A stretch of DNA of 64,000 nucleotides from Marsupella aquatica (Eukaryota; Plantae; Marchantiophyta). This document shows, one piece after another, positions 17,021-58,258 of the stretch (positions are counted from its first letter, which is position 1; each line of letters opens with the position of its first letter). The notes below the pieces were generated by a model, which saw only the letters and a list, made by a program, of their open reading frames with translations, made no database searches and was not told where the DNA came from. The DNA lies in assembly GCA_973895155.1 (NCBI GenBank), contig OZ316895.1:556435-620434 (forward strand), in the 5' to 3' direction. Position numbers and translations under genes: made by a program.

Positions 17021-20000
17021 CTATCGCCCAGTTAAGGAACTCATTTGAAGAATACCTTTAGGACGTTTTGTGCCACTGATGCTGCTAGAGGAAGATTCAA
17101 AACCTAAGTCAAGCAAGAAAAAATCAGTAGATTCGTCTTCAACGACTGTTTGGAGAACAGAATTCTCCTGGATTTGGTCGTCAGTGGTTCCAAAGAGGTG
17201 CTTAAAGTGAGACCCTGTATCCTCAGATTCTTTCAGGGAGGCTTCCACATCCGTATTTCCCATAAGCATGAACACTACTTGAGACATTGAAGGGCGCCTT
17301 TCTGGATCATTTTGCACGCATAGAAGACCAACCCTGAGTGCCCGAACGACTTCAACTACACAGTTGTCTCTTAACGCAGGTTCCAAGACATCAAGCAGCA
17401 ACCCTTTTCTGTGCATTTTATCAACCTGTAGAGAAATCAGAGACCATTGCAGACAATATGAAAGTCAGCAAGGCTTTTGTTTGAAATCAAGTGGAAAAAT
17501 GTGTTGGACCACATAACAAACTATGCAACGTACATCAGAAGGAGATAAACAAAAAACAAGTGATTAACATAACTGATCCTAAGGAGCAACGAATTGCACC
17601 TATCATCAGAAGGTGCAATCCTCAATTGTTACAAATTGCACCTATTCTTCCACTCATATTGGAACTAGTAGAACTTCGTACTTGTGTACTTTTTTCCTGA
17701 TGTTTGAATACAAATCTTGGCATTTGACCAGAAGTTTTGCAAGAGCATACCCAATCTTTAAGAAATACTTCTTCTGTAGGAAGCGTGTAGTCAATACACT
17801 TTCTTCCGCATACAATCTCTAAAACCACAATCCCGTAGCTGTAGACATCAGCTTTGTCAGAAAGTTGGCCAAGCGTAGCATACTCTGGAGAAAAGTAGCC
17901 TCTGCAACAAAATGCAGCCAATTTAATTACACAAAAGTAACACCTTAGAAAAAATTGAATAACACTCAACACTATTATGACTGAAGAACCCTCCAAAATA
18001 TTGCCAAGAATACGATCAGCACAAAAGCTAAACACAACATTCTGAACTCCATATCCAGGTACAAGACAAGTAGTGGAGCTCAAACTAAGCAAACTGCGAC
18101 GAAGGAAAAGTGGTACTTGCTTGAAGTATAGATGTTAGGGCAACGTACAATGTTCCGGCAACTTTTGTGTATAAAGAATCCCTTGATTCCTCTGATAAAT
18201 GCCTTGCTAGACCAAAGTCACCTATTTTAGGTTTGAAGTTCTTATCCAGAAGAATGTTCTCTGGTTTGATGTCCCTGTGTATGATAGATGGTTGCAACTC
18301 CTCATGAAGGTAGGAAAGGCCACGCGCAACTCCCACGCAAATCTGAAAGCGTTGTGCCCAATCCAAACTCCCGTGAGGCTGAGATCCTGCACATGTCATA
18401 TGAATGGTAACTGTGAAGAAAACAGTACACGTTACGTACTTATGATTCCATGTACAAAAGCTATTGAAGATATGTGAACAATTCATTCATTATTATATAA
18501 CGCACTTTCAGTTAGTACATTCTTGTTTCCATACTCGTATATATGTTCTCTGTGCAAACGCATTTTAACCAACGATCATGCGGACAACCTACAGAATGAG
18601 CGATACTAAGTTTAGTGGTAGGGACACAGAATGAGTGATACTAAGTTGAGTGGTAGGGACGGTCAAACTGTACCCCACAACGCTTGGGCCAAGTTCCCAT
18701 TCTCAACATATTCAAACACCAGCATGCGTTGTTGCTCCCTGATACAACAGCCTTTCAGATGAACCAAGTTTCTATGCTTGATGCCTGTAATCAGCACGAC
18801 CTCGTTCAAGAACTCATTCAAGACTTGTACTTTTTGAGAATTGAACAACCTCTTCACTGCGAGAGCAGTCTTGTCTGGTAGAACCCCCTGCTCATTATGT
18901 ACAAAGCCAATAGGCAAACTCAATAGAATTAGCTTCCAATGATCAAACTTGTTTGAAAACGTGAATTAAAGAGAATTGAAATGTTAAATTTGAACTAATA
19001 ACTAAGTACAGTAGATTTTTTCTGATGGACATTGAGTGTAGTTGCCTATTGGTAGCCTGTTCCCAATGAATGGGTAAGTCCAGAGAGTTCAATTGCCACT
19101 ATTTAAGTTGAGTTAAGAAAACATATGAGGAAAGTGAGAACCTATGAACACCATGTCAATATTTCACCAAGCAAAGTCTAGCTAAAAATTAAAGGTGCGT
19201 CCTTCAAATTGAAAGAAATGAAGAGCTTACCATATATACGTCGCCGAAGCCACCATGCCCAAGTTTGTTGTCTTTGTGAAAATCTCTTGTTGCTGATTTA
19301 AGGTCACTATATTTGAAAAATGGAGGTTTCACTTTTTGGTCAGCCAGAGCTGCAGAAAGCAAATCAACAGGTTGTGAAAATCTCTTTGATTGATAATGAC
19401 ATTAAGCTTTCCCACCAATCATTATGGCATTAGTACCATCAAATAAAGGTTAACACCACAAAACGTCTACTGACATCTTGGAGTAACAAACCATATCGTA
19501 TTGCAATTAGTGTCTCTCGTGTTATAAAACTCACAAAACTCAAACTAACCTTCCTGTATTTCCCGGAGGGCATACACTTGCTTCCAGAATTTCCACATCG
19601 TTGCGAGAGTAATAATGGAGAGTAGAAATGCAACAACCCCAAGACATATGCCAATAATCATGATGTCGTTGTTGTGGTTACTTCTTGCTGTACAATTTTC
19701 AAGAACGAACAATCATATCAAAATAGAGAGCAACAATCATATAAAAATACAGAACAAAAAGTGTAAAAAAGATTTGGCAACATGCCTCCTAGCAATTAAT
19801 CCAGACAACATTCCGTATTCCCAATATCTGTCCTAGCACTTGGCCATGACGTTTAGAAGTGCCAATGGATGCAAAAGAGAATGAAGTCCAGCATTCTTAC
19901 GCCTAGAATAGTCTTCAGTAGTTGTGGATCTGCAAAGAAATCTTTGTATGTCTGATTTTGCCCCGTAGCAGTAGGGGTTCCCACCGAGCCTAAGGAATTG

Positions 20001-23000
20001 CAGAACCACAGCAGCAATCGTGAGTGGAACTTGGCTTATACAACATACATTGAAATCTCAAACCGCTGGCTTTTGGATGAATTGAAATACTCCCAAACGC
20101 TCCATATCCCCGCAGTCAATTCTAATGTTTAGATTCACGCCATTCAAAACAGAATCAACTTTGAAGTAAACAGATCTGGCCGTCTGGGTTCAAGCAGAGT
20201 AATGCCAATAATTGTGGGCCAGTACGTGGTGTCATGAAGCATCCGTTCGTTGTACAGTCTATGAGATATGCTATTTGTCAACGAGTTTGAAAGCCGACTG
20301 GAATGGTTAGTACTAGTAATGAAAGCTCTGGAGCCTAGTGTATAATCTCCTGACGCGATCTTTGATAATTAGTTTTTCAAACTGAATAATGTTTTCTATA
20401 TACGGGCCAGTAATGATTATTGCATGATTACTCTCCCGAGGCCAATCATTCCATGGAAGCCGGTGTAATAGTTTCAAATTCATACTTACAGGATGGTTCT
20501 GTTCACATTGATTTTTTGATCTCGCAAGCTTTGGATTGTAGGCTCGAGAGCATCTGCGTTTGGTATAATATCCGAAATTCTGTTATTAACAAACGAGAAT
20601 AATTTCTTGCTGGTCTGAGAGCCGTTCTTTTTGAGCGCGTCCAACCATACGCTCAAATCCAGTGTCCCTTGGATGGCATTTCCCTCAAAATTTCTGCGCA
20701 CACACAGATCATTTAAAAACCCATTTCTCTGCACACATACCCAAGAATTTACCAAGAAATGAAATAAATCTCTCAGCAAGTCCCCGTAGAGCAGTTAGCT
20801 GGCCAACTATAGCTCGGTCGTGCATGTTCGCGCTTCGTTCTGAAGGGCTCTGAAAACTTCAAATACATTAATCCGCTCCAATCCAAGTCATGGAAGCTTC
20901 ACACTCAATTTAAAGCAGATGTCCTAGCGGTTGTTCATGGGATTTGTGGACACGAGGTCGATTGCCAATTGGAGGGTACTGTCAATCAATTCATTCCTTC
21001 TGGAAAAAATCATAAGAGTGTATGTGTAAACATTTACATTCTAATATACAGCTGTCAACCTTGGAAACGTTTTTAGCTGCATTCAAATACATTACCTACA
21101 CCCTGTATCCTGACTTTGTAAATCTTACGAACATTTCAGACGACCTCAGGTTAGTGAGTGATACTTACGCAAAGGTGAGATTTGAAAGAGTAGCTGAGAA
21201 ATACAAGGCACTGGAAAAGGTCCCGGTCAGACTGTTGTTGGAAACGTCTCTGCAAATTCAGACAAGAACCATGTCTAAAGAAGTTAGATCTGTAAAAATG
21301 TCCGCGATCAATCTCCTTGCCATTATCTGAGCATCTACTGAATGAAAAGAAGTTCCAGGAGGTTGACATTTTCTACACATTGTGAATAGGGAATCTAGCA
21401 TAAATGTTCATCACCCAGAAATGAAACAGATTGGCATTCGTCACTTGTTCTATTACGGAGGCACGTTCCTAAAACCAACGATCTACGGACTTCATCAAAA
21501 CCAAAAGCGTTATTTTATTCCACTACAGTAGACAGCTAAATGAATTACGCTTCAAAGTACGAACCGGTGCAGAGAATGTGCAATAAGACTGGAGAAAATA
21601 ACAGCTGTACGTTACTTCTAGCTCTGACTACGGTCAACGTGAAGGAGGCTGTTGTACAGAAAAATCATAGCAGTCCGTGTCCATCGGAAGCGCTAGCCAC
21701 TCACAGTTCTCGTAAAGAGTTGGAATTTATCTCAACCAACGGATCCAAGGAAGAGATGTCGCCCACGAGATTGTTATGAGACAAGTCCAAGACAGCCAAA
21801 GCATTGGTTGTGTTCTGCCACATGCTTGGAAGAGAGGACATTGCATTGTGACTGAGATTCCTGTCAAACAAGGGAAACATATTTTACCATCAAACTGGAA
21901 TTCCGTAACCGCTGTCATTGAACACAATTTATTGCCAGACGTCGGGGAGACCAGGTTCTAGGATTAATTGTCGATGGCTAAAGCATTATAGCTAAGTTAT
22001 TTGGAACGCCGAACATCATTTCTGTAAAGAGCCAGGTTTGCTGATGTAGGCATAATCTACCCAGCACTATGCATGATCATTAAAGTCGGTAATGATCACT
22101 TACAGTTCTTGCAATGTGTTGAAGAACGACACGTTTTCGAATGGGCTGAGCTCACCAGCAAGACGATTGTGAGACAAGTTCAAGGACACAAGATTGTTCA
22201 AGCCATCCCAGTCACTTGCGAGTGGGACGTTCTCGATCTTGTTGTTGGTGAAGTCCCTACAAGAAGGCGTACACAGTATGACTATGAAATAATATCTCGG
22301 CTCCGCTCACACCTTAATTGAGCGAGAACATAGACACTCGCATAGACATCGTCTCTGTGTGTTGAATCAACTCCAATTTAGTAAAACTGAGTAAACTTGT
22401 CACAATCGAAAATCTGTCGCACCAACACCTCCGAATTGGGCTATACTAGGCGAGAGATATTCACCTGTGTGGATGACCATGATATTAAGAGTCTGCAGCT
22501 ATGATTTTCTTTCGGGGTATTCCTATTAAAACTTTAGGAAACATGTCAGATTTGAGAAGATAGAAGTGCATACAATACTGTTAACGCTCCACCGGAGAAA
22601 TGATTGATGAGGAACTTAAACGCTGACAGATCCACTGTACTTCCTGTGATGTACCTGAGAATGACAGTACAACAAATTCACGAGGAGCTGAGTTTGCTTT
22701 CAGTAATTGCTTTTGATCCTAGATTTGGAAGAGTTGTGACATGTTTCAGCACAGCAATTGGCTAACCAGACTTATCAAGTATGTTAGTGATGCCAAGAAA
22801 TGCAAATACGGATTCTAGCTAGTAGACAGTAAGGTTACATGTGTCCAGACAACAAGAACAAGCACAATTTGAGGAGAACAGAACCTTGCAACAACGCATA
22901 TTTCACAAATCCAAGAGACAATGAGAATTGAGCGCGCATCCATAGAAAAGGAGGTTAGGACTTACATTTCTTGCAAACTATTTAGCTTGATGCCTGGTGA

Positions 23001-26000
23001 GTTTGCTGCATTATTTTGCAAGGTGGGAAAGTCTAGGCTTGGCATGTTCGAAAGCGTTCTACAGAGTAACATACAAATATATTAGTTTACTGAGTTTCAA
23101 ATCAGTGTAACAGGACTGAAACATAATTGAGAGACTTTGGATTCAACGAACGTGACAAGAGATTCGTATGGAAGTCCCACGAATTCTCTATCGTTGACTT
23201 CAATTGACCAATTCAGACACATCACTACGGGTTCGGAGGGCAGCTTACAAAGAGTTGACAGAATATGTGGTCCGCAAAAATCCCGGTTGCGCAGTACATT
23301 GGTCCGTCTTCCGAACACCACATGCTTTTGGAAGGGGTGCGGCAAAGCTGGTCGAGGAGTCACCGCAGGAAAGCCAGTCATGGGGAACGGGAGTACACGG
23401 ATCTCCTTGCCAGTCGTTCAGTGACAAGCTTTCCTTCAGAATAGTGATCGCGGCGTCTGCATACAATCGATATAAATTGAATCCGAGTCCTAAAGTGGCC
23501 AGTTTACATTATTACCTAGGTGAGCGCCAGGAAATCAGCTGGCCCCTTATTTTCTAACGCGAGGACAGGAAAGAAAAATTTCCCATATATATGATGACCT
23601 TCCGGTTGGAGGCTTGGACTTGCATCCGAAGTGGAAATCTTACCGTCTGTGGGAGTTGTCGTGGAGAAATTGAAGTTATACTGGGCAAACACCTCTACGG
23701 CGTTCATTGATGCCATTGAATCTGCGGCAGCTGCGGTCATTGAGATGTTCAGTGCATTCGACGATAGAATGAAATTCGAGATGACCGACATGCTTGCCTG
23801 TTTCGAGAGTGTGAGATCTGGGCCACGAATCCCGTCAAGCTCAACAACCATTGTCCCTCCTGCCGAATCTGGGTTTAGTTCCTCAGCATACACAACAACA
23901 TAAGCTATATCCGCGGGTGTAATGTATATCGGCGAAATGAAGAACAGAGGGAGCAGAATCCAGAACTGATAATCAACCCAGGCATCTTCCATGACTTTGG
24001 GCGGTACGTTGTTTGTCTCCGTTCTTGGAATAGGGTCCGGTGGAGTTGTGGTATTCCATATCGGAACATCATGGTACCAATTTGACTCAGGGGCTTGCCA
24101 CTCACGGTCGTATGAATCATCCGGGTACCTGATCGCATGACACCAAGTTAATTCTTCAGCAAATTAAACGATCTCACAATCGGTTTCAAACCACGCGGGA
24201 GCCAGTACGTACCAGTACTTCGTGGTGAGCTGAATTTCTCTGTGTCTGTGATTGTGCTACATCGAAGGGTATTGTGCCTAAAGAATAACCAAAAAATCAC
24301 GACCTTGATTGACAGTGGGAAATTCTCAAACTTAAGCAGGTGGCCGCCTGGAAGAATTGCAGTCACCTAGATTTCACAAACAACTGGAAGCGCGGTACAA
24401 AAGAGCTTATTGGGAGATGCCCAATCGGTCTATATATGGAGGAAATGTCAGACTATCACTAATAATCAATCGTGTGATACTATTCAAATTCAACTCATTA
24501 GTGTAAGGATGGGCAGTTTTGTGGAGCAGGGAGCATGGATTGGAGCAAAATCCTTCTCAACGGCTTGACCGCGACGACTAGATTAGCACGAATCTGGGAG
24601 ATCATGTAGTCATGAATGATCCCAGGTGACTTGAAATGGATCCTCCGTCTAGACCTACACTGGACTGAACTTCCTATCGAAGAAAACAAAAAGGATGATG
24701 GCCTGAATTTGAGCTTACCTTAGCAGCCCATTTGGAGTACTTGAGGGATCAGCACCAATGTTATATCTGACCAAGTTAGCAAGATACTGCCTGTCACCAC
24801 CTGGGTACGAGTACATGGAAGGGTCAAGTTCTCGCAGACTCAAGTACGAGATAAACGGTGTTCCAATCAGTGGTTGTAGGCAGATATACATGACGCTCCC
24901 TGGAGAGTAGAAGATGCCTTCATAGGACACTCTTGACACATTGGCCAACTGATCGTCCGACGCCATGTACGTCACAGTAAACACATTCGTAGCGTTGACG
25001 TAGACAACAAACTTGATGGGTAGAACCAGCGCGGACTGCAAATCGAACTCTGCGTGAACCAAATACGTTGTGTTCCTCTTTGTGGGCAGCTCATAACAAT
25101 ATTTGTTACGGCGCTCGGGAAAGAATCTGAAGGGTACAAGAGTAGTGCTGGAAATGTCCATACTGCTGTTCCCTGTCAAAATGAAGGTACTGTTGATATC
25201 CGAGGCAAAGTACAATCCGGTAAAAGGGTCCAGGAAGCCAGAACCGCCACAGGCTATATTCAAAAACCCTGCACGAACAATCAATGAAAGTGAGTGTGCA
25301 AATTAATCCCCAATTTTAATTTCATTTGGCGCCTGGTTTTGGGACATTGCAACGCCGGGATGGAAACACTAGGATACTCTGGCAAATTGCGAATTGCGTA
25401 CTAATAAATGCATTGACCGTAGCAACTATTGGTGCATGCATACTTCCCCTTGGGTATCTTCAGATCAGAATGAGCTAAGCGTATTTGGTCACTATTGGTA
25501 ATTTCAAATAGCTAGCGAAGTTCTGCTGTGACCACCTAAAAAACGCATGATATACAAATTAAGTCGCTTTGTCAGTGGCATCCTTCTTTAGATCGCGAGG
25601 ACCGCCATTGCGAAGGCCAGATACAGTGCATGACGAGAGCATCATTCTTCGATCATAACTGAAAAGCGTCGATTGTATACAAGACTTAAAACGGCATCGG
25701 CAGATTCATCAGATCTATGACGTACCGATTCAATTCGATCGGAGTTGCGAAATCTATTCTATATCAATATCTGTCCCACGATGTGTTTCGCAACTCGAAA
25801 GCTTGCACATCTCTGTTGGACAATTGAAATCCTGTTATGAAATTTTTCCTACTGTAACGAATACCAATTCGTCGGGCATAACTCGAAATGATGATTGAAT
25901 GCTCAAAACAAGTGACAAACCTGGAGTTTGCTGCTGCCCATAGGAAGTTGTCGTAAGAGTCATCCAAATTGTCAGGATGGGTAACAGACAGATCGTAGCA

Positions 26001-26062
26001 ATGCCTTGCATTCCGTATCCATGCATAGAGCAGTTCCTCTTTCCTTCCCACGATCCAGCCAT
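17021..26062 (-). CDS. malectin-like/LRR receptor-like kinase, copy 1 (multi-exon, apparently intact)
   Basis: GT-AG exons approximately: 26062-25921 (signal peptide), 25268-24719 and 24128-23644 (malectin-like), 23456-23249 (WQGDPC), 23059-22966, 22653-22575, 22256-22104, 21860-21705, 21249-21168, 20693-20490 (LRRs), 19989-19901 (LGGNPYC), 19687-19551 (TM), 19349-19232 (GHGGFG), 18887-18674 (AVK), 18385-18149 ([11 protein letters not shown]), 17900-17751 (SPEY, DVYSYG), 17426-17021. Confidence 0.9.
24719..25268 (-). CDS. RLK copy 1 exon 2: first malectin-like subdomain
   Basis: GFLNIACGG...[15 protein letters not shown]...YLVHAEF...[18 protein letters not shown] is typical of malectin-like domains. 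Confidence 0.9.
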
Positions 26063-28530: not shown

Positions 28531-28951
28531 TGAAGTCAAAAACATCAAATTACATTGAATATTGAGGGACATACTGAATGTCAAAGTTAGGTGCTCTGAA
28601 AGGCAAAGTGTGGACTGCGAGTGACCTCATAGCCCGTCTGATAGTAATGTTTAGAAGCTTATAGACCCCTCTCAATTCTACATGAAATATTAGACTGGTC
28701 CATCTTTCCAAGCTCCTTCTAACTACCGGTAGCCCAAGATGAGACTCTTCCATTGCATGTCTAGGGAGATGGTCAAACCTTGCTACTGAAAACATTCTGG
28801 AAACAAGCTAGAAGAATATAATTAATGATTCAAATTGTAAACGGAGTACAGTCCATGGGTGTTGCATGGTTCATGGGCAGGTCCATGTGATGCAATTTCA
28901 AGGTGGTTTTCGTAGGCTTAGCTGTGATGGTCACATAGACTTCCTGGAGGA

Positions 28952-29250: not shown

Positions 29251-29275
29251 CTGGAGGACTTGAATCCCTCCCAAA

Positions 29276-29786: not shown

Positions 29787-30253
29787 CTCCCAAAAGCTAT
29801 ATGACCAACCGTATTTTCAGATGTCCCTTCCGGTGCTTCTGGAGAATGGGCTTTTGTTGACGAGATCTTGGTCGCTACCTACCTTTGATAAACCCTAAAC
29901 CCACCGAACTTGCGTGCTCAGCCTCGATTTCTCCGCAAACTTACTCCGGACCTTCCTACCCACTTTTCCAGTCGACCTGATTTATGAGTCCGTTGGGACA
30001 TTGGCAACGCTTGTTCCTGCTAGCTGCAGACCAAGGTGCCCTGTTGTTGATGAAACACACCTGTAAAGAATGGAACTAGAGCTACCATGTGAGAATTCAA
30101 GGCGCACCATTTTTTGTTCGGCTCTTAATTATTAAGAGTTTCCATCAGGACCAGTCTGTGATTAGCACAATTGTCCAGCTGTTCAATTGCACCATCGATC
30201 GATCGATCGATACTGGAGACTAACCTCAATTGAAACCAAATGGACTTTGTTTG

Positions 30254-32302
30254 AACAAAATCCAGATTGAACTGAGATTCAACCTCGCGTTTTCCATGAC
30301 TTTGGGCGGTACGTTGTTTGCGCCTGCTCTTCGTTTAGGGTCTGGTGGAGTTGTGGTATTCAAAATCGTATATAATTGTACCAAGTTGAGTCGGGGGAAA
30401 ACCAAACACGGTCGTATGAATCATCCGGGTACCTGATCGCATGACATCAAGAACCTTGAGCAAATTGAAGATCTCAGATTGGTTTGAAACCTATTCCAGC
30501 AGACTCATGCGCGCGCGCGAGTACGTCGTGGTGAGCTGAATTCCTTTCCTCTGTGTCCATCATTGTGCTATATATCGAACGGTGTCGTGCTTGCTTAGTG
30601 TAACCTAAAATTTACGACCTTCATTGGCTTCCTGGAAATTGTACAGTCACCTAGTTCACAAACAACTGGAAGCACTTTGCAAAGGACCTCATTGGGGAGA
30701 CGCCCAATGGGTCTATACATTCAGGAAATGTCAGAATATTATAATCAATTATGCGAAACTATTGAGCTCATTTAGAGTAAGTACCGGCTGTGCCATAGAT
30801 CATGGAGCATGGATCAAAATCTATGTCAATGATTTGACTGAGAAGAATAGATTAGCACGAATCTCGGCGATCATGTAATCAAGAATGACACCAGGTGACC
30901 TGAGATGGAACCCCGGCCTAGACCTAACTGAGCTGAATCGAAGAAACAAAAGGGTAATGGCCTGAATTTGATGCTTACATTATTTAGATATGGAGCACTT
31001 GTCGCGGGATCAGCACCAATGTTATATCTGAGCAAGCTAGCAAGATACTGCCTGTCAATACCTTAGTAAGAGTACATAGAAGGGTCAAGTTCTCGCAGCT
31101 TAGTACGTGATGAACGGTGTTCCAATAACTGGTTGTAGGCAGATATACGACGCTCCCCGGAGAGTAGAAGCTAGATGTCTTCATACCCTGACACATTGGC
31201 CCACTGATAGTCCGAGTATGTCACAGAAAATACATTTGTAGCGTTGATGTAGACAACAAACTTGATGGGTAGAACCAGCTCGGACTGCAACTCGAACACT
31301 GCGCAAACGAAATACGTGGTGTTCCTCTTCGTGGGCAGTTCATAACAATATTTATTACGGCGCTCGGGGAAGAATCTGAAAGGTGACGGAATAGTGCTGG
31401 AAATGTCCGTACTGCTGTTCCCTGTCGAAATGAAGGTACTGTTGATATCCGAGGCAAAGTACAATCCGGTACTAGGCTCCAGGAAGCCAGATTGGCCACA
31501 GACTATATTCAGAAAACCGGCACGAACAATCAATGAAAGTAAGCGGGGAAACCCCCAAAAGATCAATTTCATTTGGCGCCTGGTTTGGGGACGTTGCAAT
31601 GCCGAAATGGACACTTAGAACACTCTGGCAAAGTGAGCACTGCGTACTGATGCATTGACCGTAGCGACTATTCGTACCTATTGACCGTACTATCCATTCG
31701 AATCGCTAGTGAAGATCTGTTGTCACCACCTAACAGGCACATAATAGTGGAACGTCGTCCTCTTGTTTTTTGCCCTTTCCCAAGCTAGAACTATACAAAT
31801 TAAGATGATTTGCCAGTGTCATTTCGATCTCTTGTAAATGGCGAGGACTGCCATGCATGGGGAGTTGAATACAGTGACGACAACTGAACCATTTCCGATT
31901 ACAACTGAAATGCGTCGATTCTATACAAGACTAGAGCGTCATCGGCGGAGATCTCTATCACCAATATTAATTCAATTCGATCGGAGTTGCGAAATCTATT
32001 CTACAATCATTATCTGTCCCACCATTTGTTTCCCAACTCAAAGCGTTTTCTACGTACGTCTCTATCCGACAATCGTAACCGTCCTGTTACGAAATCTTTC
32101 CTACAGTAACGAAGTCAACACCAATTCGTCGGGCATAACTTGAAATGCTGATTGAATGTTGAAAACTAAAGACAACCCTGGCTGCCCATAAGACGTCGTC
32201 ACCAGATTCATCCAAATTGTAAGGATGGGAATAGAGCGATCTTCGGAATTAAAGCCTTGCATTCCGTATGCATGCATAGAGCAATTCCAACGATCCAGCC
32301 AT
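30254..32302 (-). pseudogene. truncated RLK copy (exons 1-2 and part of exon 3) fused to the 3' flank
   Basis: Exon 1 has deletions and has lost its donor; exon 2 (about 31515-30980) has a frameshift/stop near 31171-31190; exon 3 breaks near 30254 and joins sequence homologous to 16220-16705. Confidence 0.88.
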
Positions 32303-34362
32303 TTTTTCCAATTGAGATGTAGCCTATGAATCCAATCTATCGTACTTTACCAAATTCGTAAAGCTCTTATCACAGTTGCTGAAATCGATGCCGACCAATC
32401 TACCTGAGGAGCTGAGAATCCTCCCGTTACATTTGAGAATTTCACTTCTCCGACAGGAGTAATCTCGACCTCTGCATTGCATATTTTCAGCTCAATGCCA
32501 TGTATCGCCTATCCGTGCTTCCAGAAGACTCAATGCTTACTATGTCGCACTTTCCGGATTCGTATCAGTGTCCCGATCAGTCTCTCCAGACGATGGCACG
32601 CTACTCAACTTTGTTCACCGAATTTCAAGTTGGGAACAGTACCCATAAGATCCCAGGGTCATCCTCAGGAGTACTTAAAGTAATAAGCTAAATCTATCTA
32701 ATGAATGTAGTATGACCAGGCACACGGGTAACTATGTTTTTTGCACCGACCATTATCGATCATCCCCCTACCCAATTAGATGTCGTGCAGCGTTGCTCGG
32801 TTCGTAGATATATAGCTATACTTCGGCTGCCCAGCCAGTTGCCTATGTTGGGTAGTCTTTCATTCCAGGACAGTGAGTCTTTCCGCGTAGTAACGGCATT
32901 GTTGTTATCCCTGCCTCAAAAATTCCGAAATTTTCCTTAAGTATTACACTTCGAGCCTCAGTCTCCTAACGCTGCACCAATGCGATGATTCTTGTCAAGT
33001 TGCCAATTCAAGTATCTGTCGATCGAAAGCTACGTGGAACGCATGGCTGTAATTGGTGGCAGGAGTGCGAGTCCGGTGATATGCATGAGGTGGCCACGAT
33101 TGATTGTTCCTGAAGAGCTTTGGGCAAAAGAGTTCCCAGGTCTGTATGGGAGGACCAAGCTTCCCGCCATGGGAAAACTTACTTCGTTGCGGACCTTAAG
33201 GTGCGGTGAGAAGGTGCGGACGATGTTGCTGGGAAGCTATAATTGGAGACTGACGTCGATTGTCAATAATTTTCTCATGGCTGAATTCAACAAGCGGTCA
33301 CAAGTCCCACACAATGTAAGTTTAATATACCTCCGGAAAACCTGGTCAAAGTTGTGGAGAAAAATAAGATCTTTCGAGGCCTTTCTGGAGCAGACCGTCT
33401 GAAACGTAGATTTAGTACATATCTCAAAAATCCACACTGCGGCAAGTGAGACTTGGAGTTCAAGTTTCACCTAGCTTTTGCGCAATACAAAAGTGAGGTT
33501 CACCAATTGAAGCCCTTAGCACACAAAAGGCTCGACTTTTTAAAAAAGACTAGCGGTCCTTCTCTTGTCATCTAAATGGAAACACAGGGCAGCATCAGAG
33601 CGAGTGAGATTGAGCTAAATGAGTAGCACCTAAGAGTCAGACCCAAGGGAGTGTACTAAATGAGTTTTCCAAGGAACCATTAGACCCAAGGGATTGTATT
33701 AAGTGAGTTTCCCAAGGAACCTTTCACCTGAATCACAAGATTTCCCTCAAGACTCCCATGGACTCAGCATTTTTTACTAAGGTCAAATGCTACTGAGTAA
33801 CAAATTTAGAGTTACTGTTTTCAGAACTATCTATAGAAGTTGTAGGGGTCCTTCTGAGCAGACACTTATTTCAAGTTCTCATATTTTTGTTTACTATGTC
33901 TGGTTTTTATTGTCATTACCGAAGGCAAGTGAGGATCTTATGATTGTATCTTGTGCACAACTTTTGATTGATTTGAGTGCAAGTGAGACCATTGAGCTGA
34001 AAACTAATATACAATGCACAGGTCACCCTGGACACCAGAAGTCTGAAGGTACGAGATCTGGAATGTGACGGATATCTTATCATTACTTACTACTGGCCTG
34101 ATTACCCGGCATTCATTAAACGTAAACATAGTTAACATAAGAAAACTCTTGCAAAAGTACATAATTATGCTGTTTCCCCTTCACACATAAATCCTGTGTG
34201 CAGTGGGTATACATCTGCATTCTAATATTTTTGCTATCATGACTGTGCATCGTCAACAATGCCAAGCTAGCACCCAACTAAGGACCTCATTTGAAGATCG
34301 AATAGCTTTAGGACGTTGTGTGCCACTGGTGCTGCTAGAGGAAGATTCAACAATCACCTAAG

Positions 34363-43300: not shown

Positions 43301-44325
43301 ATCGGTCGAACCAGCGCTGGCTGCCAATCGAACCTTACGCGAATCATATACTTGGTGTTCCTCTTCGTGGGCAGCTCATAACAATATTTGTTACGGCGCT
43401 CGGGAAAGAATCTGAAGGGTGTTTTAATAGTGGTGGAAATGTTCATACTGCTGTTCCCTGTCAAAATGAGGGTACTGTCGATATCCGAGGCATAGTACAA
43501 CCCGCTCAGAGGGTCCAGGGAGCCAGGACCGCCACAATTTAGAGTCAAGAACCCTGTACGTACACACAATCAATGAAAGTAAGTAGGCAAGCCCCCAATT
43601 TTAATTTCATCTGCGCTGGTTTGGGGACATTGCAATGTCGGGATGGAATTGCTAGAATACTCCGGCAAATTGCGCACTGCGTACTGATGCATTGACCGTA
43701 GCAACTATTAGTACGTACTGATCGACCCTTGGGTATCGACTTCAGTTGAGAATGAGCTAAGTGTATTTGGTCTTTGTTGGTAATCTCAAATAGCCAGCGA
43801 AGAAATGCTGTGACCACAAAAGCGGCGCATGATTTACAAATTAAGACAGTTTGCCAATGTGTTCCTGTTGAAAATGGCGAGGACCGCCACGGGGAAGGTT
43901 ACATCAGTGACGACAGCATGAACCATGTTCGATAATAACTAAAAGCGTCGATTGTATACAAGACTAGGGCGTCATCGGCGGCGATCTCTATCACCGATTC
44001 AATGCGATCAGAGTTGCGAAATTTATTGTACAATCATTATCTGTCCCACCATTTGTTTCCCTACTCATATCTCTATCCGACCACTGAAATCCTGTTATGA
44101 AATCTTTTACACTGTAACGAATACCAATTCGTAAAGCAAAACTCAAAATGACATTGATTGAATGTTCAAAACATGAGACAAACCTGGAGGTTGCTGCTCC
44201 CCAAAAGACGTCGTCGCCAGATTCATCCACATTGTAAGGATGGATAACAGAGAGATCCTAACAAATCCTTGCATTCCGTATCCACGCATACAGCACTTCC
44301 TGCTTCCTTCAAGCGACCCAGCCAT
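34363..44325 (-). CDS. malectin-like/LRR receptor-like kinase, copy 2 (C-terminal tail truncated by frameshift)
   Basis: Same exon series: 44325-44184 (signal peptide), 43553-43007, 42414-41930, GDPC exon about 41736-41529, LRR exons 41.3-38.6 kb, TM about 37.8-37.66 kb, kinase exons 37.46-34.36 kb with HRDIKPEN and DFG; stop at 34363 instead of about 34267. Confidence 0.85.
41090..41245 (-). repeat. triplicated exon end plus splice donor (55-58 bp units)
   Basis: Three copies of ATCATGCTCAATATGTTG(C/G)AAGA(A/C)AT|GTAAGTC on the minus strand. Confidence 0.85.
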
Positions 44326-48787: not shown

Positions 48788-51700
48788 CTATCGCCCAACT
48801 AAGGAACTCATTTGAAGAATACCTTTAGGACGTTGTGTGCCACTGGTGCTGCTAGAGGAAGATTCAAAACCTAATGCAAGCAAGGGTAAACCGGTAGATT
48901 CGTCTTCAACGACTGTTTGGAGAGCCGAGTACGACAATTGGCGGTCAGTGGGTCCGACGAAGTGCTTAAACTGAGACGGAGTATCCTCTGATTTTTCCAG
49001 AGAGACTTCCACATCCATATTTCCCATGAGCATGACAACTACTTGAGACATTGAAGGGCGCCTTTCTGGATCATGTTGCACGCATAGAAGACCAACATTG
49101 AGTGCCCGAAGGACTTCAGGTACTACACACTCATCTCTCAACTCAGATTGCAAGACATCCAAGAGCAACCCTTTTCTGTGCATTTGCTGAACCTGGAGAG
49201 TAAACAAAAATCATTGCAGACAATGGTGAAAGTCAGCAAAGCTTTTGTTCGAAATCAAGCGGAAAATTGTGCTGAACTCGGAACAACTATGCAACATCAG
49301 AAGAAATAAATCAATAACGAGTGAGAAACATAATTGATCCTAAGCTGCCTCCCAAGGCTATACCACCGTAGCAACGATTGCACCTATCATCAGAAGGTGC
49401 AAGCCTCAATCGTAACGAATTGCACCTATTCTTCCATGCAGAATTCAAACAAGTAAGACTCTCTTCTTTAACTGTATACTTTTCGTTTGAACACAAATCT
49501 TGGCATTTGACCAGAAGGTTCTGCAAGATCATATTACCCAATCCTTTAGAAATACTGCTTCTGCAAAAGTGTAGTCAATGCACTTTCTTCCGCTAACAAT
49601 CTCTAAAACCACAATCCCATAGCTGTAAACATCAGCTTTGTCTGAAAGTTGGCCTTGCGTAGCATACTCTGGAGAAAAGTAGCCTCTGCAACAAAATACA
49701 GCCATTAGGCTAATATCTTAGAACAAGTTGAATAATACTCAGCAATTTATGATTGAAAAGATCCCTCCAAAAACTTGCCAAGAATAGAAATTGTCATGTT
49801 TGACGCCGAGAAGTACAAAACAAAAAGTGGAGTTCTAACTTATCAAACTAAGACTCCGACCAAGGAAAAGTGGTACTTGCTTGAAGTATATATTCGGGAA
49901 ACTTACAATGTTCCAGCAATTTTTGTGTATAAGGTTTCCCTGGACTCCTCTGATAAATGCCTTGCTAGACCAAAGTCAGCTATCTTAGGCTTGAAGTTCT
50001 TATCCAGAAGAATGTTCTCTGGTTTTATGTCCCTGTGTATGATAGATGGTTGCAACTCATCATGAAGGTAGGAAAGGCCACGAGCAACTCCCACGCAAAT
50101 CTGGAAGCGTTGTGCCCAATCCAAACTCCCGTGAGGCTGAGATCCTGTACATGTCACATTAAATGTTAACAGTGAAAAAAACAGTGCGTGGTACGTATAT
50201 ATGTGTAGCAGGAATCATCAAGACTATATACATGATTAAGTTGAGTTCTAGGCATGGATTTCCATATACAAAGCTATTCAAGATATGTAAACAATTCATT
50301 CATTAATTGTACAACGCATTTTCAGTACATTCTTGCCTCAAACTTGTATATTTGTTCACTGTGCAAAGACTTTTTACCCAATCATGCATGGCACAACCTA
50401 CAGAATGAGGGATACAAATTATAGTGGTCGAGACGGTCATAATTTACCCCACAATGCTTGGGCCAAGTTCCCTTTCTCAATGTATTCAAACACAAGTATG
50501 CGTTGTTGCTCCCTGACGCAACAGCCTTTTAAATGAACCAAGTTTCTGTGCTTGATGCCTGTAATTAGCACAACCTCGTTCAAGAACTCATTCAAGACTG
50601 GTACTTTTCGAGAATTGAACAACCTCTTTACTGCAAGACCGGTCTTGTCTGGTAGAACCGCCTGCTCATTATGCACATGCCCAATAGGCAAACTCAATAG
50701 AATTAGCATCCAAGAATCAAACTAATTTGATAACGTAAGCTAAAAGAGAACTAAAATGTTTTCAATTTGAACCTGATGTCTATTTAAATTTCACCTAATA
50801 AGTGAGTAGATGTTTTATGAATGTAGTTGCCTCTTCTGTCCCAAAAAAGAAGGGGTACAGAGAGTTCAATTGCCGCATGTCATTGGGTGCTCACATTCTC
50901 AAAGGAAACATATGACGAAAGCGAGAACCTACGAACACCATGCCAATACTACACCAAGCAAGGTATAGCTAACAATGAAAGGTATGTCCTCCAGGTTCAA
51001 AGCAATGAAGAACTCACCATATATACCTCACCGAAGCCACCGTGCCCAAGTTTGTTGTCTTTGTGAAAATCTCTTGTCGCTGATTTGAGGTCACTATATT
51101 GATAAAATGGAGGTTGCACTTTTTGGTCTGCCAGAGCTGCAGAAAGAAAAACACCAGGTTACGAGAATCTCTTTGATCGATAATGAAGCTTTCCCACCAA
51201 TCATTATGGCATTCAGTAACATCAAATTAAGGTTAACACCACAAAACGGCAACGTCTTGGAGTAACAAACCATATTGTGTTGCAAGTGGTCTCTCGTGGT
51301 ATAGAACTCCCAAAACTCAATTTTACCTTGCTGTATTTCTCGGAGGACATACACTTGCTTCCAAAATTTCCACATCGTTGCGACAGTAACAATAGAGAGT
51401 AGAAATGCAACAACCCCAACACATATCCCAATAATCGTGATGTCGTTGTTGTGGTTACTCTTTGCTGCACAGTTTTGAAGGAAGAACAATCACATCAAAT
51501 TACAAAACAATAAGTGTAAAGACGATTTGGGAACATGTCTCCGGTCAATTATTCCAGATAATATTCCGTATTATTTTGCAATATCTGTCCTAGCACTCGG
51601 CGATCAGGCTTAAGAGCGAGCTTAAGAGTTACAATTGGTTTCGAAAGGAGTGAAGTCCAGCATTCTTACGACTCGAATAGTCTTCAGTAGTTTTGGATCT

Positions 51701-54700
51701 ACAAAGAAATCTTTGGATGTCCGAATTTGCCTCGTTGCAATAGGGGTTTCCACCGAGCCTAAGGAATTGCACAACCACAGCTCCAATCGTAAGTGAAATT
51801 TGACTAATACAAAATGCACTAAAAGCTCAAACCGCTAGTTATTTTTAGGAATTGCAATACTCCAAGCGCTCCATGTCTCCGGAGTAAATCCTACATTTTA
51901 GAGTCAGGCCATTCGAAACAGAATGAACTGTCAAACACACAGATTTGGCCTAAGGGTTCAGGAGCAGAAATCCCAAGGATTGTGGCCCAGTGGTGCCATG
52001 ACCGCATCATTCCGTTCGTTGTAGTCTACGAGATGATGCACTTTGCCAAAGAGTTTGAAAGATCTACCTCTACTGTATAATCTTTAATCTGTAGTGATTT
52101 GTATGAAAGCTCTTAGCCTAGTGTATAATCTCCTGACGGGGTATTCTGTAATTAACTTTCAAACTGAATAATCAGTACCAGGCTTTCGATTTATGGGTCT
52201 GTAATTTGTCAAAGAGTTTGAAAGCTCTAGAGCTTACTTTGTAAACTTCGATCTCTACTGATGTAAATGGACAGCCGGCTGGGTCAGTCACGAGTATTGC
52301 ATGATTACACCCCTGATACGTAATTATCATTCCATCGAAATCAACCAATAGCTTGAACATACATACTTACAGGATGCTTCGGTTAACATTGATTTTTTGA
52401 TCTCGCAATCTTTTGATTGTAGGCTCGAGAGCATCTGCGTTTGGGATAATATCCGAAATTCTGTTATTAACAAACGAGAACAACTTCTTGCTGGTCTGAG
52501 GGCCGTTCTTTTGGAGCGCGTCCAACCATACGCTCAAATTCAGTGTCCCTTGGATGGAATTTCCCTCAAAATTTCTGCGGACAAACAGAACATTAAACAC
52601 CCACTTCTCTGCAATACCACCTCAAGAACTTTAAGAGTACAAATAAAAATCTCAGCAAGTCACCCTTACTAGAGCAGTCAGCTGATTGAAGTAAATTAAG
52701 TTCGGTTGTGTTTGTTAGTGTACCCTTCTTAAGTGCAATCTCTTGATTCTTCGCCTACATTAATCCACTCCAATTCAACACATGCACGCTTTGACCCCAG
52801 GTCGATTTCAATCAAATCAACTCTAATTTCAATCAAATCAACTTTTTTGGGGAAAAAACATTAATGTATGTGTACAAATGACAACATTTACATCTTCTAA
52901 TGCTCCAATGCAATATACAGCAGTCAACCTTGGAAAGTTTATCAGCTGCAATCAAATGCCCGTTTTAAAGACATTAAGTACACCTCGTATGCTGACTTTG
53001 TAAACCTTAGTGAGTGATACTTACGCAAAGGTGAGATTTGAAAGAGCCGGTGAGAAGTACAACGCACTGGAAAAAGTCCCCGTCAGACGGTTATTGGAAA
53101 CGTCACTGCAAATGGAGACAAGAACCATGTGCAAAGGCGTTAGACGCGTAAAAATCTTACCGATCGGTCTCCTCGCTGTTACTCGAGCATCTACTGGGAA
53201 ACAGAAAAAAGTTCGAGGATATTCACATTTTCTACAAATCATGAATGTGATGTTCTCGCAAATCCAAAAACATCTTGCTTCAATAACGAGTAATTTAGCA
53301 TTTGTTCAGCACCGAGAAATTAAACAAATTGGCAGTCGTCACTTCTTCTGTTAGGGAGGCACGTTTTTATAATTCAACGATACCACTCAAATTGCAGCTA
53401 CTAACAAGCTAAACTTCAGAGCCTAGCATGATCGAGTTCATCTACGAACTTCATCAAAGCCAAAAGCGTCATGTAAATCCCATCGCCAGTTAATTACGTT
53501 TCAAACTACAAATTGGTGCAGCGACTGCGGAATACGACTGGGAAAGATAACAGTTTTACGTTAAACCCTAAACCCTACAACTCTAGCTCTGACAGGCTAT
53601 TGTACAGTAAAATCATAGCAGTCCAAGTCCATCGGAAGCGCTTGTGCCACTTACAGTTTTCGTAGAGAGTTGGAATTTATCTTAACCAACAGATCTAAGG
53701 AAGAGATGTCGCCCTCAAGATTGTTATGAGACAAGTCCAAGAGAACCAAAGCATTGGTTGTGTTTTGCCACGTGCTAGGAAGAGAGGACATTGCATTGTG
53801 ACTGAGATTCCTGTCAAAACAAGTAAAACACGTTTTACATCAAACTGGAATACGGCATGTTAAAAATGAAGACCGGTTTCATATATTGAACACAAGTTAT
53901 TGCCAGACGTCGAGGACACCTTTTAGAATTGTCGATGGCTAGAACATTACAGCAAAGTAATTTGGAACGTAGAACATCGATTTTGTAAAGAGCCAGGTTT
54001 GCTGATGTAGGAATAATCTACCCAGCACTATGCATGATCATTAAAGTGGGTAAGACTTACAGTTCTTGCAATGTGTTGAAGAACGGCACGTTTTCGAATG
54101 GGCTAAGCTCACCAGCAAGACGATTTTGAGACAAGTTCAAGGACACAAGATTGTTCAAGCCCCCGTTCAAGCCAACCCAGTCACTTGCGAGTGGGACGTT
54201 CTCGATCTTGTTCTTGGTGAAGTCCCTACAAGGAGGCATACACAGGATGACTGTCAAATAATTTCTTGGCTCCGCTCACACCTTTAATTGAGCAAGAACA
54301 TAAACATCGTCTCTGTGCATGTTCAATCAAGTGCGATTTAGTAGAACTGAGTAATCTTGTAACAATTGATAATCTGTTACATCATCACCTTCGAATTATC
54401 AGCTGTACTAAGTGATAGATATTCGCCTGTGTGGATGACCATGATATAAAGCTTCTGCAGCTGTGATTTTCTTTTGGGCTAGTCCTAGATTACCATATGA
54501 AACTTTAGGAAACATGTCAGATTTGAGAAGATAGAATTGCATACAATACAGTTAACCATCCACCGGAGAAGTTATTGATGAGGAACGTAAAAGCTGACAG
54601 ATCCACTTTACTGTTTGTAATGTACCTGAGAATGACAGTACAGCAGATAGACGAGGAGTTGAGTTTGCTTTCACTAATTGCTTTGATCCTATATTTTGGA

Positions 54701-57700
54701 ACAGTCGTTACTGCTTTCAGCACAGCAATTGGCTAGCCCGATTTATCAAGTTAGAGATGCCAAGGAATTTAATACAGATTCTAGCTAGCTAGTATAAGAA
54801 TTAATTAGACAGTCAGGTTACATGTGTCAGACAACAAGACAGAGTGAACAAGGTCTACAGTAAGCAAGGACAGTTTATGGAGAATGAAACCTTGAAGCAA
54901 TACATGTTTCTCAAATCCAAGAAGATGACTGAGAATTAAGCACGCATCCCACGGCCCCTCAATCTAACAGGAGTCTCACATCACTTGCACGTTTTTGAGT
55001 AGTACATAGTGTAAAAATCATTCCCTAAATTACTTAAAATTGAAAACTCTATGTTTTCTGTAATTCTCAAAATTCTATTTAAATAGTTCTGATGCCTTCC
55101 ATAAAGTTCGTCTTCTACTAGCCACAACGAAAAACTTTTTAAAAATCCAGTATTTGTTGCGGGTGATGGGTACGTAGGAAGTAAATGAGTACCCAGAGAC
55201 ACTCATTCAAGAAGAGGAGGTTAGGACTTACATTTCTTGCAAAAGACCCAGCATGACGCCTGGTGACTTTGCTATATTATTTTGCAAGGTGGGAAAGTCC
55301 CGGCTTGGCCTGTTCGAAAGAGTTCTGCACAGCCACATATCGATAATGCAAAAACATTACTTCACTGAGTTCCAGATCACAAGAACAGGAGACTGAAACA
55401 AACATTGAAACATTTTGGATTGATGGATGTCACAAGACATTCGCATGCAAGAAGCCACGAAATCGCAATCATTGACTTCAATTGACCAGTCAGACAAATA
55501 AGTACAGGTTCGGAGGCAGCGTGCAGCTTACAAAGAGGTGACGGAGTATCCTGTCCGCAAAAATCCCGGTTGCGCAGTACAGTGGTCCGTGCTTGAAAGA
55601 CCACATGCTTTTGGAAGGGGTGCGGCAAAGATGGTCGAGTCACCGCAGGAAAGCCAGTCATGGGGAACGGGAGTACACGGATCTCCTTGCCAATCGTTCA
55701 GTAACAAGCTTTCCTTCAGAATAGTGATCGCTGCGTCTGCATACAAGAACCGAAGATGAATATAATCTGAGTCCGAGTCCTTAAGTGGCAATTTTGCATT
55801 TATTTATAACCTAGATGAGCGCAAGAAATCGGCTGGCCCCATAGTTTTCAACGCCAGGATCGGACCGGAAAGCGAAATTTCACGTACTATGACCGTGCGT
55901 TTGAAGGCTTGGACTTGCATTCGAAGTTAAGAGCTTACCGTCTGTTGGAGTTGTCGTGGAGAAATTGAAGTAATATTGGGCATAAACCTCTAAGGCGTTC
56001 ATCGATACCATCGAATCTGTCATTGCGCTGATTGAAATGTTTACTTCAGTCGACGAAAGAATGAAATTCGAGTTTACCGACATGCTTGCGTTTTTGGAGA
56101 CAGTGAGATCTGGGCCACGAATCCCGTCAAGCTCAATAACCATTTTCCCTCCTGACGAACTTCGGTTTAGTTCTTCACCATACACAACAACATAAGCGTA
56201 TTCCGCGGATGTCGCGTATATCGGCCAACCGGCGAACAACAGATTGAACGCAATCCAGAACTGAGAATCAACCCACGCATTTTCCATGACTTTAGGCGGT
56301 ACGTTGTTTGCCTCTGCTCTCGGTTTAGGGTCCGGTGGAGTTGTGGTATTCGAAGTGGGATACCAATTGAACCAACTTGAGTCAGGGCTCCACCAATATC
56401 GGTCGTATGGATCATCCGGGTACCTGATCGCATGACATCAAGCATCTTCAGCAAATTAAACGATCTGAAATTGGTTTCATCAAACCACTCCAGCGGACTC
56501 ACGCGTGCGTACGTCGTGTTCCCTTTGCTCTGTGTCCATAGTTGTGCTATATCGAACGGTATCGTGCCTAATTAGAGTAACCTAAGACTTAAGACCTTCA
56601 TTGACACTGGCAAATTTTCAAAACTAAACAATTTAAGACTGCCTGGAAAGTTGTACAGTCACCTAGATTTCACAAACAACTGGAAGCACGGTACAAGGAC
56701 CTCATTGGGAGATGCCCAATGGGTTTATATATTCAGGAAATTTTATCTGAACTATTATAATCAATTGTGCGAAACTATTGAGCTCATTTAGAGGAAGTAC
56801 GGACGGTGCGGTAGTAGATCATGGAAAATGGATCAAAATATATGTCAATGATTGACCGAGACGAATAGATTAACTGTACGAGTCTCGGATCGAGATGATG
56901 TAATCGTGAATGACACCAGGTGACTGGAAATGGAAGCCCCGCCTAGACCTAAACTGAACTGAGCAGAATCGAAGGAAAAAGAAAGGATAAGGGCCTCAAT
57001 TCGATGCTTACATTAGCAGCCCATATGGAGTAGTTGAGGGATCAACACCAATGTTATATCTGACCAAGTTAGCAAGATACTGCCTGTCACTACCTGGGTA
57101 AGAGTACATCAAAGGGTCAAGTTCTCGCAGCTCCAAGTTTGAGATGAACGGTGTTCCAATCAGTGGTTGTAGGCAGATATATATGACGCTCCCCGGAGAG
57201 TAGAAGATGCCTTCATAGCTCAAACTTTTATTGACGAACGAAGAGTCCGAAGCCGAGTATTCCACAGTAAACACATTCGTAGCGTTGACGTAGACGAAAA
57301 ACTTGATGGGTAGAACCAGCTCGGACTGCAAAATGAACGATGCGCGAACCAAATACGTGGTGTTCCTCTTCGTGGGCACCTCATAACAATATTTGTTACG
57401 GCGCTTGGGAAAGAATCTGAAGGGGTACGGAATAGTGCTTGAAATGTCCATACTGCTGTTCCCTGTCAAAATGAGGGTACTGTTGCTATCCGGGGTAGAG
57501 TACAATCCGGTAATATTGTCCAGGCCGCCAGAACCGCCACAGTCTATGTTAAAAAATCCTGCACGAACAATCAATGAAAATAGTGGGCAAATCCGCAATT
57601 TTAATTCCATTTGGCGCATTGACCGTACTATCCGTTCGAATTGGTAGCGAAGGTCTGCTGTGACTACCTAAAAGGCGCACGATAGTCGAAAGTCTTCACC

Positions 57701-58258
57701 CTTCCTTTTTTCCCGAGCAAGAACAATACAAATGACGACGATTTGCCAGTGTCATTCTTCGTTCATTCATTCGCCAAATTAAGGAGGACCGCCGTGGGGA
57801 AGGTTTAATGCGGTGACTACAGCATGAACCATCTTCGATTACAACTAAAAAGCGTCAATTCTATATAAGACTTAGAGCGTCATCGGCCGAGATCTCTATC
57901 ATCGATTCAATTCGATCGGAGTTAATTGCGAAAGCCATTCTACAATCATTATCTGTCCCACCATTTGTTTCCCAACTGAAAGCCTTTCCTACGTCTCTAC
58001 CCGACAATCGAAACCTGTTCTGAAATCTTTTCTACAGTAAGTAACAAAATCAATACCAATTCGTCTGGCATAACTCGAAATGATGATATATTGAATGTTC
58101 AAAACTAAAGACAAACCTGGAGTTTGCTGCTGCCCATAAGACGTCGTCGCCAGCGTCATCCAAATTGTAAGGATGGATAACAGAGAGATCTTAACAAATC
58201 CTTGCATTCCGTATCCATGCCCACAGCAGTTTCTCCTTCCTTCAAGCGATCCAGCCAT
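48788..58258 (-). CDS. malectin-like/LRR receptor-like kinase, copy 3 (apparently intact)
   Basis: Signal-peptide exon from 58258, malectin-like exons about 57557-57012 and 56423-55939, GDPC exon about 55736-55532, LRR exons 55.3-52.4 kb, TM about 51.47-51.33 kb, kinase exons 51.14-48.79 kb with all catalytic motifs. Confidence 0.9.

Follow-up and report, generated by a model that had tools for sequence, protein, structure and literature searches.

Background

Two of the closest known systems to the genes reported here are families of receptor-like kinases (RLKs). In the SYMRK family, the consensus WxxDPCxPxxWxxxxC lies between a malectin-like domain (MLD) and the leucine-rich repeats (LRRs), according to a preprint (10.64898/2026.05.08.723708), and release of the MLD at GDPC is described for SYMRK (PMC10739070; 10.64898/2026.05.08.723708). 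In LRR-VIII-2 receptors, malectin follows the LRRs and there is no GDPC (PMC5380761); VIII-2 receptors perceive cellulose- and glucan-derived oligosaccharides (10.1101/2022.08.09.503277). Here we analyze a tandem array of receptor kinase genes on the minus strand of a 64,000-nucleotide stretch of the liverwort Marsupella aquatica (contig OZ316895.1, positions 556,435 to 620,434; hereafter the window). Their proteins would combine an MLD-GDPC head related to that of LRR-I receptors with a bryophyte LRR-kinase body near LRR-VIII-2.

Domain swapping among RLKs is generally known (PMC10834447), which limits the surprise, and RLK fusions are described as usually recent and rare (PMC7318236). The accessible part of the SYMRK-family preprint reports lineage-specific clades in Marchantia and Physcomitrella and no kinase switch (10.64898/2026.05.08.723708). 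We found no published description of this chimera in the mostly open-access literature, although preprint supplements may include these proteins, and the sole match in a search for the Marchantia gene identifiers was an unrelated paper naming Mp1g05060. Recurrent head swapping of this kind appears to be undescribed so far.

Affinities of the kinase and the head

An earlier reading of the window, made from the sequence alone, proposed that a SYMRK/LRR-I-type ectodomain had been joined to an LRR-VIII-2-like kinase and the product amplified, and named a grouping of the kinase with LRR-I as an outcome that would refute this. For the kinase comparison we used 302 domains, leaving out those shorter than 262 residues and keeping only 4 of the Asteraceae PP2-kinase proteins; the labels VIII-2, CRK and SD-1 derive from precomputed Pfam domains. 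Maximum-likelihood trees were calculated from hand-picked subsets (78, 50 and 45 of the 302 kinase domains, and 55 of 145 MLDs). In the FastTree tree of all 302 domains, the window kinases belong to a clade of 108 domains, for which we coin the label B8; every member that could be identified comes from a moss or a liverwort. The 78-row IQ-TREE tree supports B8 (99) within the DLSV branch (98), where it does not resolve the order of VIII-2, CRK and SD-1. The 45-row mixture-model tree contains B8 (100/99), VIII-2 (95/91) and the two together (93/83) within a DLSV branch of 32 rows (100/99) that comprises DUF26, SD-1 and LRR-VIII-2 kinases as well as those of the window; the 50-row analysis gave the sisterhood with VIII-2 a value of 94 in the Shimodaira-Hasegawa-like approximate likelihood ratio test (SH-aLRT).

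Forcing the window kinases and LRR-I into one clade lowered the log-likelihood by 165 units (approximately unbiased (AU) test, p = 4.3e-6, 50 rows), and forcing all of B8 with LRR-I was likewise rejected (p = 8.5e-5). Compared with 63 Sphagnum B8 domains, the copy 3 kinase is 54% identical (median); the corresponding values are 46% for 36 VIII-2 domains, 43% for CRK and 39% for 48 LRR-I domains. The kinase belongs to a bryophyte-only DLSV clade that is probably sister to LRR-VIII-2. On the MLD tree, by contrast with the kinase, the window heads group among LRR-I heads, and the separate trees are incongruent. A chimeric origin of the window receptors, as first proposed, is therefore very probable.

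Probable position of the junction

The swap had been placed at the border between ectodomain and kinase. This placement is not supported, and one between the transmembrane (TM) helix and the kinase is rejected: starting at about residue 515, the LRR array accompanies the kinase, as do the LGGNPYC cap and the TM helix. In copy 3, residues 515-810 (LRRs, cap, TM and juxtamembrane region) match Sphagnum LRR-only B8 receptors at 33-35%, and in our local set such receptors were found with E = 1.6e-29 (P0339) and 1.9e-28 (P0343). The best LRR-I match in the same set reached only E = 3e-8, over residues 393-538, and the LRR-I protein P0129 matched residues 395-426 only. When copy 3 was compared with P0129 in 50-residue bins, agreement was 50-52% over residues 101-250 and 12-22% over 451-800. 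Everything from about residue 515 onward (LRRs, cap, TM helix and kinase) matches LRR-only bryophyte receptors; the graft thus comprises the MLD-GDPC head only, and we infer that the junction lies near exons 5-6, at residues ~460-515. Introns 4-10 are all in phase 2, so that an exchange within introns would preserve the reading frame; LRR-I genes presumably share this phase in their LRR introns.

Probable recurrence of head exchange

The array had been thought lineage-specific; this does not hold, as receptors built in this way are also present in Calypogeia, Marchantia, Riccia and Sphagnum. Of the proteins retrieved, 43 combine a single B8 kinase with a near-complete MLD (3 from the window, 5 from Calypogeia, 5 from Marchantia, three of which form one cluster, 11 from Riccia, 17 from Sphagnum and 2 from Logan), a search-biased sample rather than a census. 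GDPC or a near match is present in 35 of the 43. Most liverwort B8 members retain the MLD, and 10 further moss members of B8 (from Ceratodon, Physcomitrium and Pohlia) all lack it.

On the MLD tree (55 rows) the kinase class changes 7 times, and at least 4 of these changes are forced by strong (starred) branches; a single change occurred in 0% of 200 bootstrap MLD trees. Monophyly of the B8-linked heads was rejected overall and within liverworts alone (both p ~3e-5), in two tests that were framed after an earlier result had been seen. These tests reject a single ancient fusion inherited unchanged. The clearest swaps are in Sphagnum, namely P0301/P0345 and P0309/P0348/P0353, whose heads are mostly 66-94% alike while their kinase classes differ. 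For example, P0301 and P0345 agree at 74-94% per 50 residues over 51-450 and at 2-14% over 501-650, and have different kinases. A further clear case is Calypogeia P0226 beside P0294-P0300. By gene numbering, chimeras are located close to LRR-I genes: Mp1g05055 lies near Mp1g05090, and the S. magellanicum chimera 17G102100 near the LRR-I genes 17G100100-100600. We consider recurrent head swapping probable. The build is shared by liverworts and Sphagnum, and the window array itself is recent.

Kinase surveys file such proteins under LRR-VIII-2 and ectodomain surveys under the SYMRK family, so that both can miss them. A kinase-based LRR-I table includes Sphmag19G090200 and 17G100100-100600 and omits the chimeric 17G102100, the tags being matched by number (PMC10739070). 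Kinase-based counts of VIII.2 receptors are 75 in S. magellanicum, 16 in M. polymorpha and 13 in Arabidopsis, and the bryophyte counts likely include the B8 clade. The chimeras offer an explanation both for the bryophyte-driven expansion of VIII.2 and for the GDPC motif reported, as "data not shown", in 210 of 1989 VIII.2 receptors (PMC10739070).

Three other proteins are worth recording. In the Ceratodon protein P0401 (M758_5G144000; 7 member sequences in its cluster), the bryophyte LRR-cap-kinase body is the same, but the N-cap and first LRRs are SERK-like, which would make them a second kind of borrowed head. P0388 (Riccia fluitans R1flu_012636), a single model that could be an annotation fusion, joins a B8 kinase to a coiled coil and to a segment weakly matching a U-box. 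Finally, the Marchantia chimera P0145 (Mp1g21730) keeps the MLD, has no GDPC and very few LRRs, and does not match the HRD-K-N pattern that we used, so that its kinase is possibly atypical.

Domain architecture

The encoded order is MLD, WQGDPC, LRRs, LGGNPYC, TM helix and RD kinase, which makes the protein a single-pass receptor. In copy 3 (minus strand), exon 1 (58117..58258) encodes a predicted signal peptide, a hydrophobic stretch judged by eye. Exons 2-3 (55939..57558) encode the MLD, which would derive from LRR-I and is the most variable part; Pfam Malectin_like (PF12819) matches these two exons with E = 1e-19 and 1e-7. Exon 4 (55532..55736), where LRR-I proteins mainly match, contains WQGDPC and an LRR N-cap with a disulfide-type insertion. 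All three copies have WQGDPC and, further downstream, the P, W and C of the SYMRK-family consensus. Exons 5-6 (54545..55324), the putative junction zone, encode two irregular LRRs. The remaining LRRs and the LGGNPYC cap, on exons 7-11 (51670..54225), are homologous to LRR-only bryophyte receptors. Exon 12 (51327..51464) encodes the TM helix and the LREIQQ juxtamembrane helix, and exons 13-17 (48788..51136) the RD kinase, a member of the bryophyte DLSV clade, together with the C-terminal tail. Pfam gave weak LRR matches on exons 7-8 and kinase matches on exons 14-16, and no match for 3 of the 10 exon pieces scanned.

The sequence-only reading counted 7-8 irregular LRRs. We count about 8 regular repeats and, in addition, 2 atypical strands, judged by eye from the alignment and from the structural model of the relative P0070, which has one repeat fewer. 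This model (mean pLDDT, the predicted local distance difference test score, 79.5) contains a beta-rich head, nine LRR strands and a long continuous TM-juxtamembrane helix at 729-770. A malectin domain hidden before the TM helix was ruled out: only ~35 residues separate cap and TM helix, and none is found there in the P0070 model. PF11721 was detected in P0400 only, among 11 proteins scanned. With the full-length P0070 model, the Foldseek matches listed were kinases only, and a PDB sequence search with the ectodomain relative P0002 gave generic LRR matches and no malectin-like structure.

The glycine-rich loop, the AVK lysine, the helix-C glutamate, HRD and DFG are present in all three copies, and the kinase is predicted to be an active RD kinase with intact motifs. 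Its introns lie after VYx, LWG, AGTx and the W of subdomain X (phases 0, 1, 2 and 0), positions that presumably match those of CRK, SD-1 and VIII-2 and differ from those of LRR-I.

Gene models and transcripts

The 17-exon model was first made for copy 3 from the sequence and then mapped onto the other copies, so that the exons are predicted from splice signals, conservation among the copies and full-length relatives. All 16 introns of each copy are GT-AG, their phases are identical across copies, and their sizes range from 181 to 1017 bases. Contigs of four read runs cover the introns; none of the joints listed among them matches an annotated intron.

The best protein matches come from Calypogeia fissa, a leafy liverwort, P0060 being up to 84% identical in the kinase; the window, too, is thus likely to derive from a leafy liverwort. 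Two relatives carry an MLD (PF12819) and a kinase in one frame on assembled-read contigs: P0070 (1147 aa on 4195 bases) and P0278 of the Mp1g21730 cluster (1043 aa on 3801 bases). These contigs are too short for introns, so that they probably represent spliced transcripts. Phase-matched splicing and these relatives suggest that the MLD exons and the kinase exons form one transcript.

Organization of the array

The array spans ~16.3-59.3 kb of the window. The sequence-only reading was exact in its coordinates and in the motifs it quoted, all of which are present: copy 3 has its ATG at 58258, and the stop codon of copy 1 ends at 17021. It was also right that the unit had been amplified in tandem, with three 17-exon genes, although a fourth, broken copy (~33300-29787) had been missed. 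Copy 1 (17021..26062, minus strand; 1168 aa) is open and intact, with exons at 26062-25921, 25268-24719, 24128-23644, 23456-23249, 23058-22966, 22654-22574, 22256-22104, 21860-21705, 21249-21169, 20693-20490, 19989-19901, 19687-19550, 19349-19231, 18887-18674, 18386-18149, 17901-17751 and 17425-17021. Copy 3 (48788..58258, minus strand; 1169 aa) is likewise open and intact.

Copy 2 (34267..44325, minus strand) also has 17 exons and is open through the kinase, but its tail is frameshifted by four indels (window 34267-34400) and stops after residue 1136, so that the conserved C-terminal ...L-x-x-R motif, present in most family members, is lost. Over 34321-34579, contigs of read runs X1 and X2 are identical to the window, and those of X3 and X4 have one extra base at 34389; the tail sequence thus varies between sequenced samples. 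Since the tail is broken in the X1 and X2 contigs too, it is not an assembly error.

The pseudogene copy (29787..33300, minus strand) lies between copies 1 and 2. It retains the upstream region, frameshifted exons 1-2 and the start of exon 3 (to ~30253); the exon 3 remnant is fused directly to a homologue of the 3' flank, and everything between has been deleted. This can be seen from two matches, of 23951-25433 to 30253-31675 and of 16263-16706 to 29787-30253. Contigs of run X1 tile the junction with no differences; among those listed, none covers 31 letters to each side of it.

Upstream of the ATG, the pseudogene and copies 2 and 3 share about 1 kb of conserved sequence (72-75%; 32794-33300, 44808-45185 and 58714-59308), whereas in copy 1 the conservation reaches only ~0.5 kb, which suggests divergence of its promoter. 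Part of the spacer is included in the duplicated unit (27233-28055 matches 47463-48354), and GC-rich low-complexity repeats lie downstream of the pseudogene (28833-29780) and of copy 3 (46389-47168). Outside the array, window positions 1-10500 contain two inverted Ty1/copia-type retrotransposon copies, ~76-89% alike, with gag-, integrase- and reverse-transcriptase-like open reading frames interrupted by stops; related terminal sequence also occurs at 11581-11880 and 62769-63305.

Divergence among the copies

The pooled pairwise ratio of nonsynonymous to synonymous substitution rates (dN/dS) is 0.72 for the MLD (95% interval 0.56-0.94), 0.41 for the LRRs and 0.19 for the kinase (0.12-0.27); for the first half of the MLD it is 0.92 (0.63-1.34). 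Differences between copies cluster at residues 141-160, 221-260, 281-300 and 421-440. Positive selection was set aside as a result because the intervals include or lie below 1, and with three paralogues only it is inseparable from relaxation. Which of the three copies stands apart from the other two changes from one part of the gene to another (chi-square over 29 segments, p = 5e-16; p = 0.004 for exons alone). Such mosaic relationships are consistent with conversion among copies, to which rate variation or intron misalignment may contribute.

Proposed function and alternative explanations

Our overall reading, to which we assign a probability of roughly 0.6, is that these are chimeric receptors with an LRR-I-related MLD-GDPC head on a VIII-2-near bryophyte body, likely serving as diversifying surface sensors for microbes or wall damage. 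The immune or stress-sensing part of this reading is, by analogy, somewhat more probable than its opposite. Heads would be exchanged, repeatedly among liverworts and in Sphagnum, by recombination or conversion between neighboring LRR-I and VIII-2-like genes, with the exchange falling inside LRR introns of phase 2. If SYMRK and IOS1 are a guide, the head would bind or screen an apoplastic signal and be set free at GDPC; the remaining LRR body could then pair with a co-receptor, leading to kinase activation and a defense-type output, as for VIII-2 receptors of cellulose- or glucan-derived oligosaccharides (10.1101/2022.08.09.503277).

Several points weigh against this reading. The MLD ratio below 1 means that relaxed constraint explains the fast head as well as positive selection does, and GDPC or a near match is absent from 8 of the 43 chimeric proteins, including Mp1g21730. 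The LRR-I head nearest to the window head clade, P0129, is weakly joined (96/62). Among the kinases, sisterhood with VIII-2 is not firm, given its support in the 45-row tree and its being open in the 78-row tree; SYMRK, IOS1 and LRR-VIII-1 are not named tree rows, and no hornwort or fern rows are identified. The relatives are automatic gene models, some of them clearly fused (P0010 and P0014), and the nearest Calypogeia gene appears to be annotated in two parts divided at intron 2, P0122 (229 aa) and P0060; the two lie on contigs of equal length, and we read them as one split gene model.

Among the alternatives, the one that survives best, while still unlikely, is that the chimeras are real but that the exchange and divergence of their heads are neutral side effects of unstable tandem arrays, the head being relaxed and the LRR body functional. 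The ratios for the MLD and its first half would be expected in this case; in addition, one of the four copies is dead and another has a broken tail, and the moss B8 domains mentioned above do without the MLD. However, exons 2-3 are open and spliceable in all three copies while the introns have diverged to ~60-89%, the differences are clustered (141-160, 221-260 and 281-300) rather than evenly spread, and most liverwort clade members retain the MLD.

Slightly less likely again are receptors for development or cell-wall integrity, like CrRLK1Ls or the developmental LRR-I proteins (RHS and CAMEL), rather than immune receptors. CrRLK1Ls have the same MLD, and some MLD-LRR kinases are developmental according to the preprint (10.64898/2026.05.08.723708). 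Nevertheless, tandem expansion, pseudogenes, mosaic copies and a fast head fit the variable, stress-linked class of MLD-LRR receptors better than the low-copy conserved clades (10.64898/2026.05.08.723708; PMC10739070).

A role in symbiosis, suggested by the sequence-only reading alongside immunity, gained no support in this analysis, and we consider it improbable that the receptors act like SYMRK or like the strain-specificity loci NS1/NS2. The MLD-GDPC-LRR order is that of SYMRK, but the SYMRK kinase structure, aligned to P0070, is just 34% identical to its kinase. Moreover, members of the family are found in Marchantia polymorpha and in Sphagnum, neither of which is known to form arbuscular mycorrhiza. 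The preprint describes NS1/NS2 as variable MLD-LRR arrays that gate symbionts, which favors such a role, and SYMRK as mostly single copy, which speaks against it (10.64898/2026.05.08.723708).

It is very improbable that the chimera is an artifact of separate neighboring genes for head and kinase: the closest relative is seemingly annotated in two pieces, but splicing is continuous and phase-matched across introns of 181-1017 bases in three copies, P0070 and P0278 are single-frame contigs, many full-length models exist in four genera, and P0060 on its own still has the kinase joined to the MLD's second half.

Returning to the chimeric receptors as sensors, near-identical heads on different kinases, together with the Marchantia polymorpha members Mp1g05055 and Mp1g21730, make a role of the MLD and of its release at GDPC testable apart from the SYMRK/IOS1 kinase, and Mp1g21730, which lacks GDPC, is a natural control for head cleavage. 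A broader idea, which we hold only tentatively and think rather doubtful, is that the bryophyte "VIII-2" expansion is a modular chassis, an LRR-TM-kinase body that would repeatedly take heads from neighboring receptor genes (LRR-I malectin-like heads several times, and the SERK-like cap in P0401), with the heads acting as interchangeable sensors or decoys. If true, the chassis would parallel integrated-domain NLRs at the cell surface, and head exchange would be a main route by which immune recognition diversifies in mosses and liverworts.

Comparison with known receptors

The window receptors resemble LRR-I or MLD-LRR-RLKs (SYMRK, SHRK1-3, IOS1 and FRK1) in having an N-terminal PF12819 domain followed by WxGDPCxP, in heads that intermingle with bryophyte LRR-I heads, and in forming tandem arrays with fast heads. 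They differ in that the kinase is excluded from LRR-I, the juxtamembrane region is unrelated, and ~8-10 LRR strands with an LGGNPYC cap replace the short LRR stretch of LRR-I. CrRLK1Ls have an MLD without LRRs, unlike the window proteins with their LRRs and DLSV-branch kinase.

LRR-VIII-2 receptors (At1g56130/40/45 IGP/CORK1, RKF1 and LIK1) have the nearest vascular-plant kinases. The earlier comparison with the LRR-then-malectin order of VIII-2 is not supported: the window kinase belongs to its own bryophyte-only clade, the non-chimeric members of which have LRRs without malectin. Unlike VIII-2, the window proteins have no single malectin (PF11721) between LRRs and TM helix, and carry a tandem MLD and GDPC in front.

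The bryophyte LRR-only receptors (Sphagnum P0343 and P0339), of which we found no characterized member in the accessible literature, share the LRRs from about residue 515, the LGGNPYC cap, the TM helix, the LREIQ helix and the kinase, with agreement of 60-64% per 50 residues over 801-1000; they start instead with a plain LRR N-cap and have no MLD. The CRKs (DUF26 kinases) offer a parallel for the process itself, being DLSV-type kinases that gained a new ectodomain by fusion, with ectodomain/kinase exchanges and a grass-specific kinase switch being reported (PMC6368629). The CRKs are confined to vascular plants, have a different ectodomain and replaced it as a whole, whereas in the window receptors the exchange would concern the head only.

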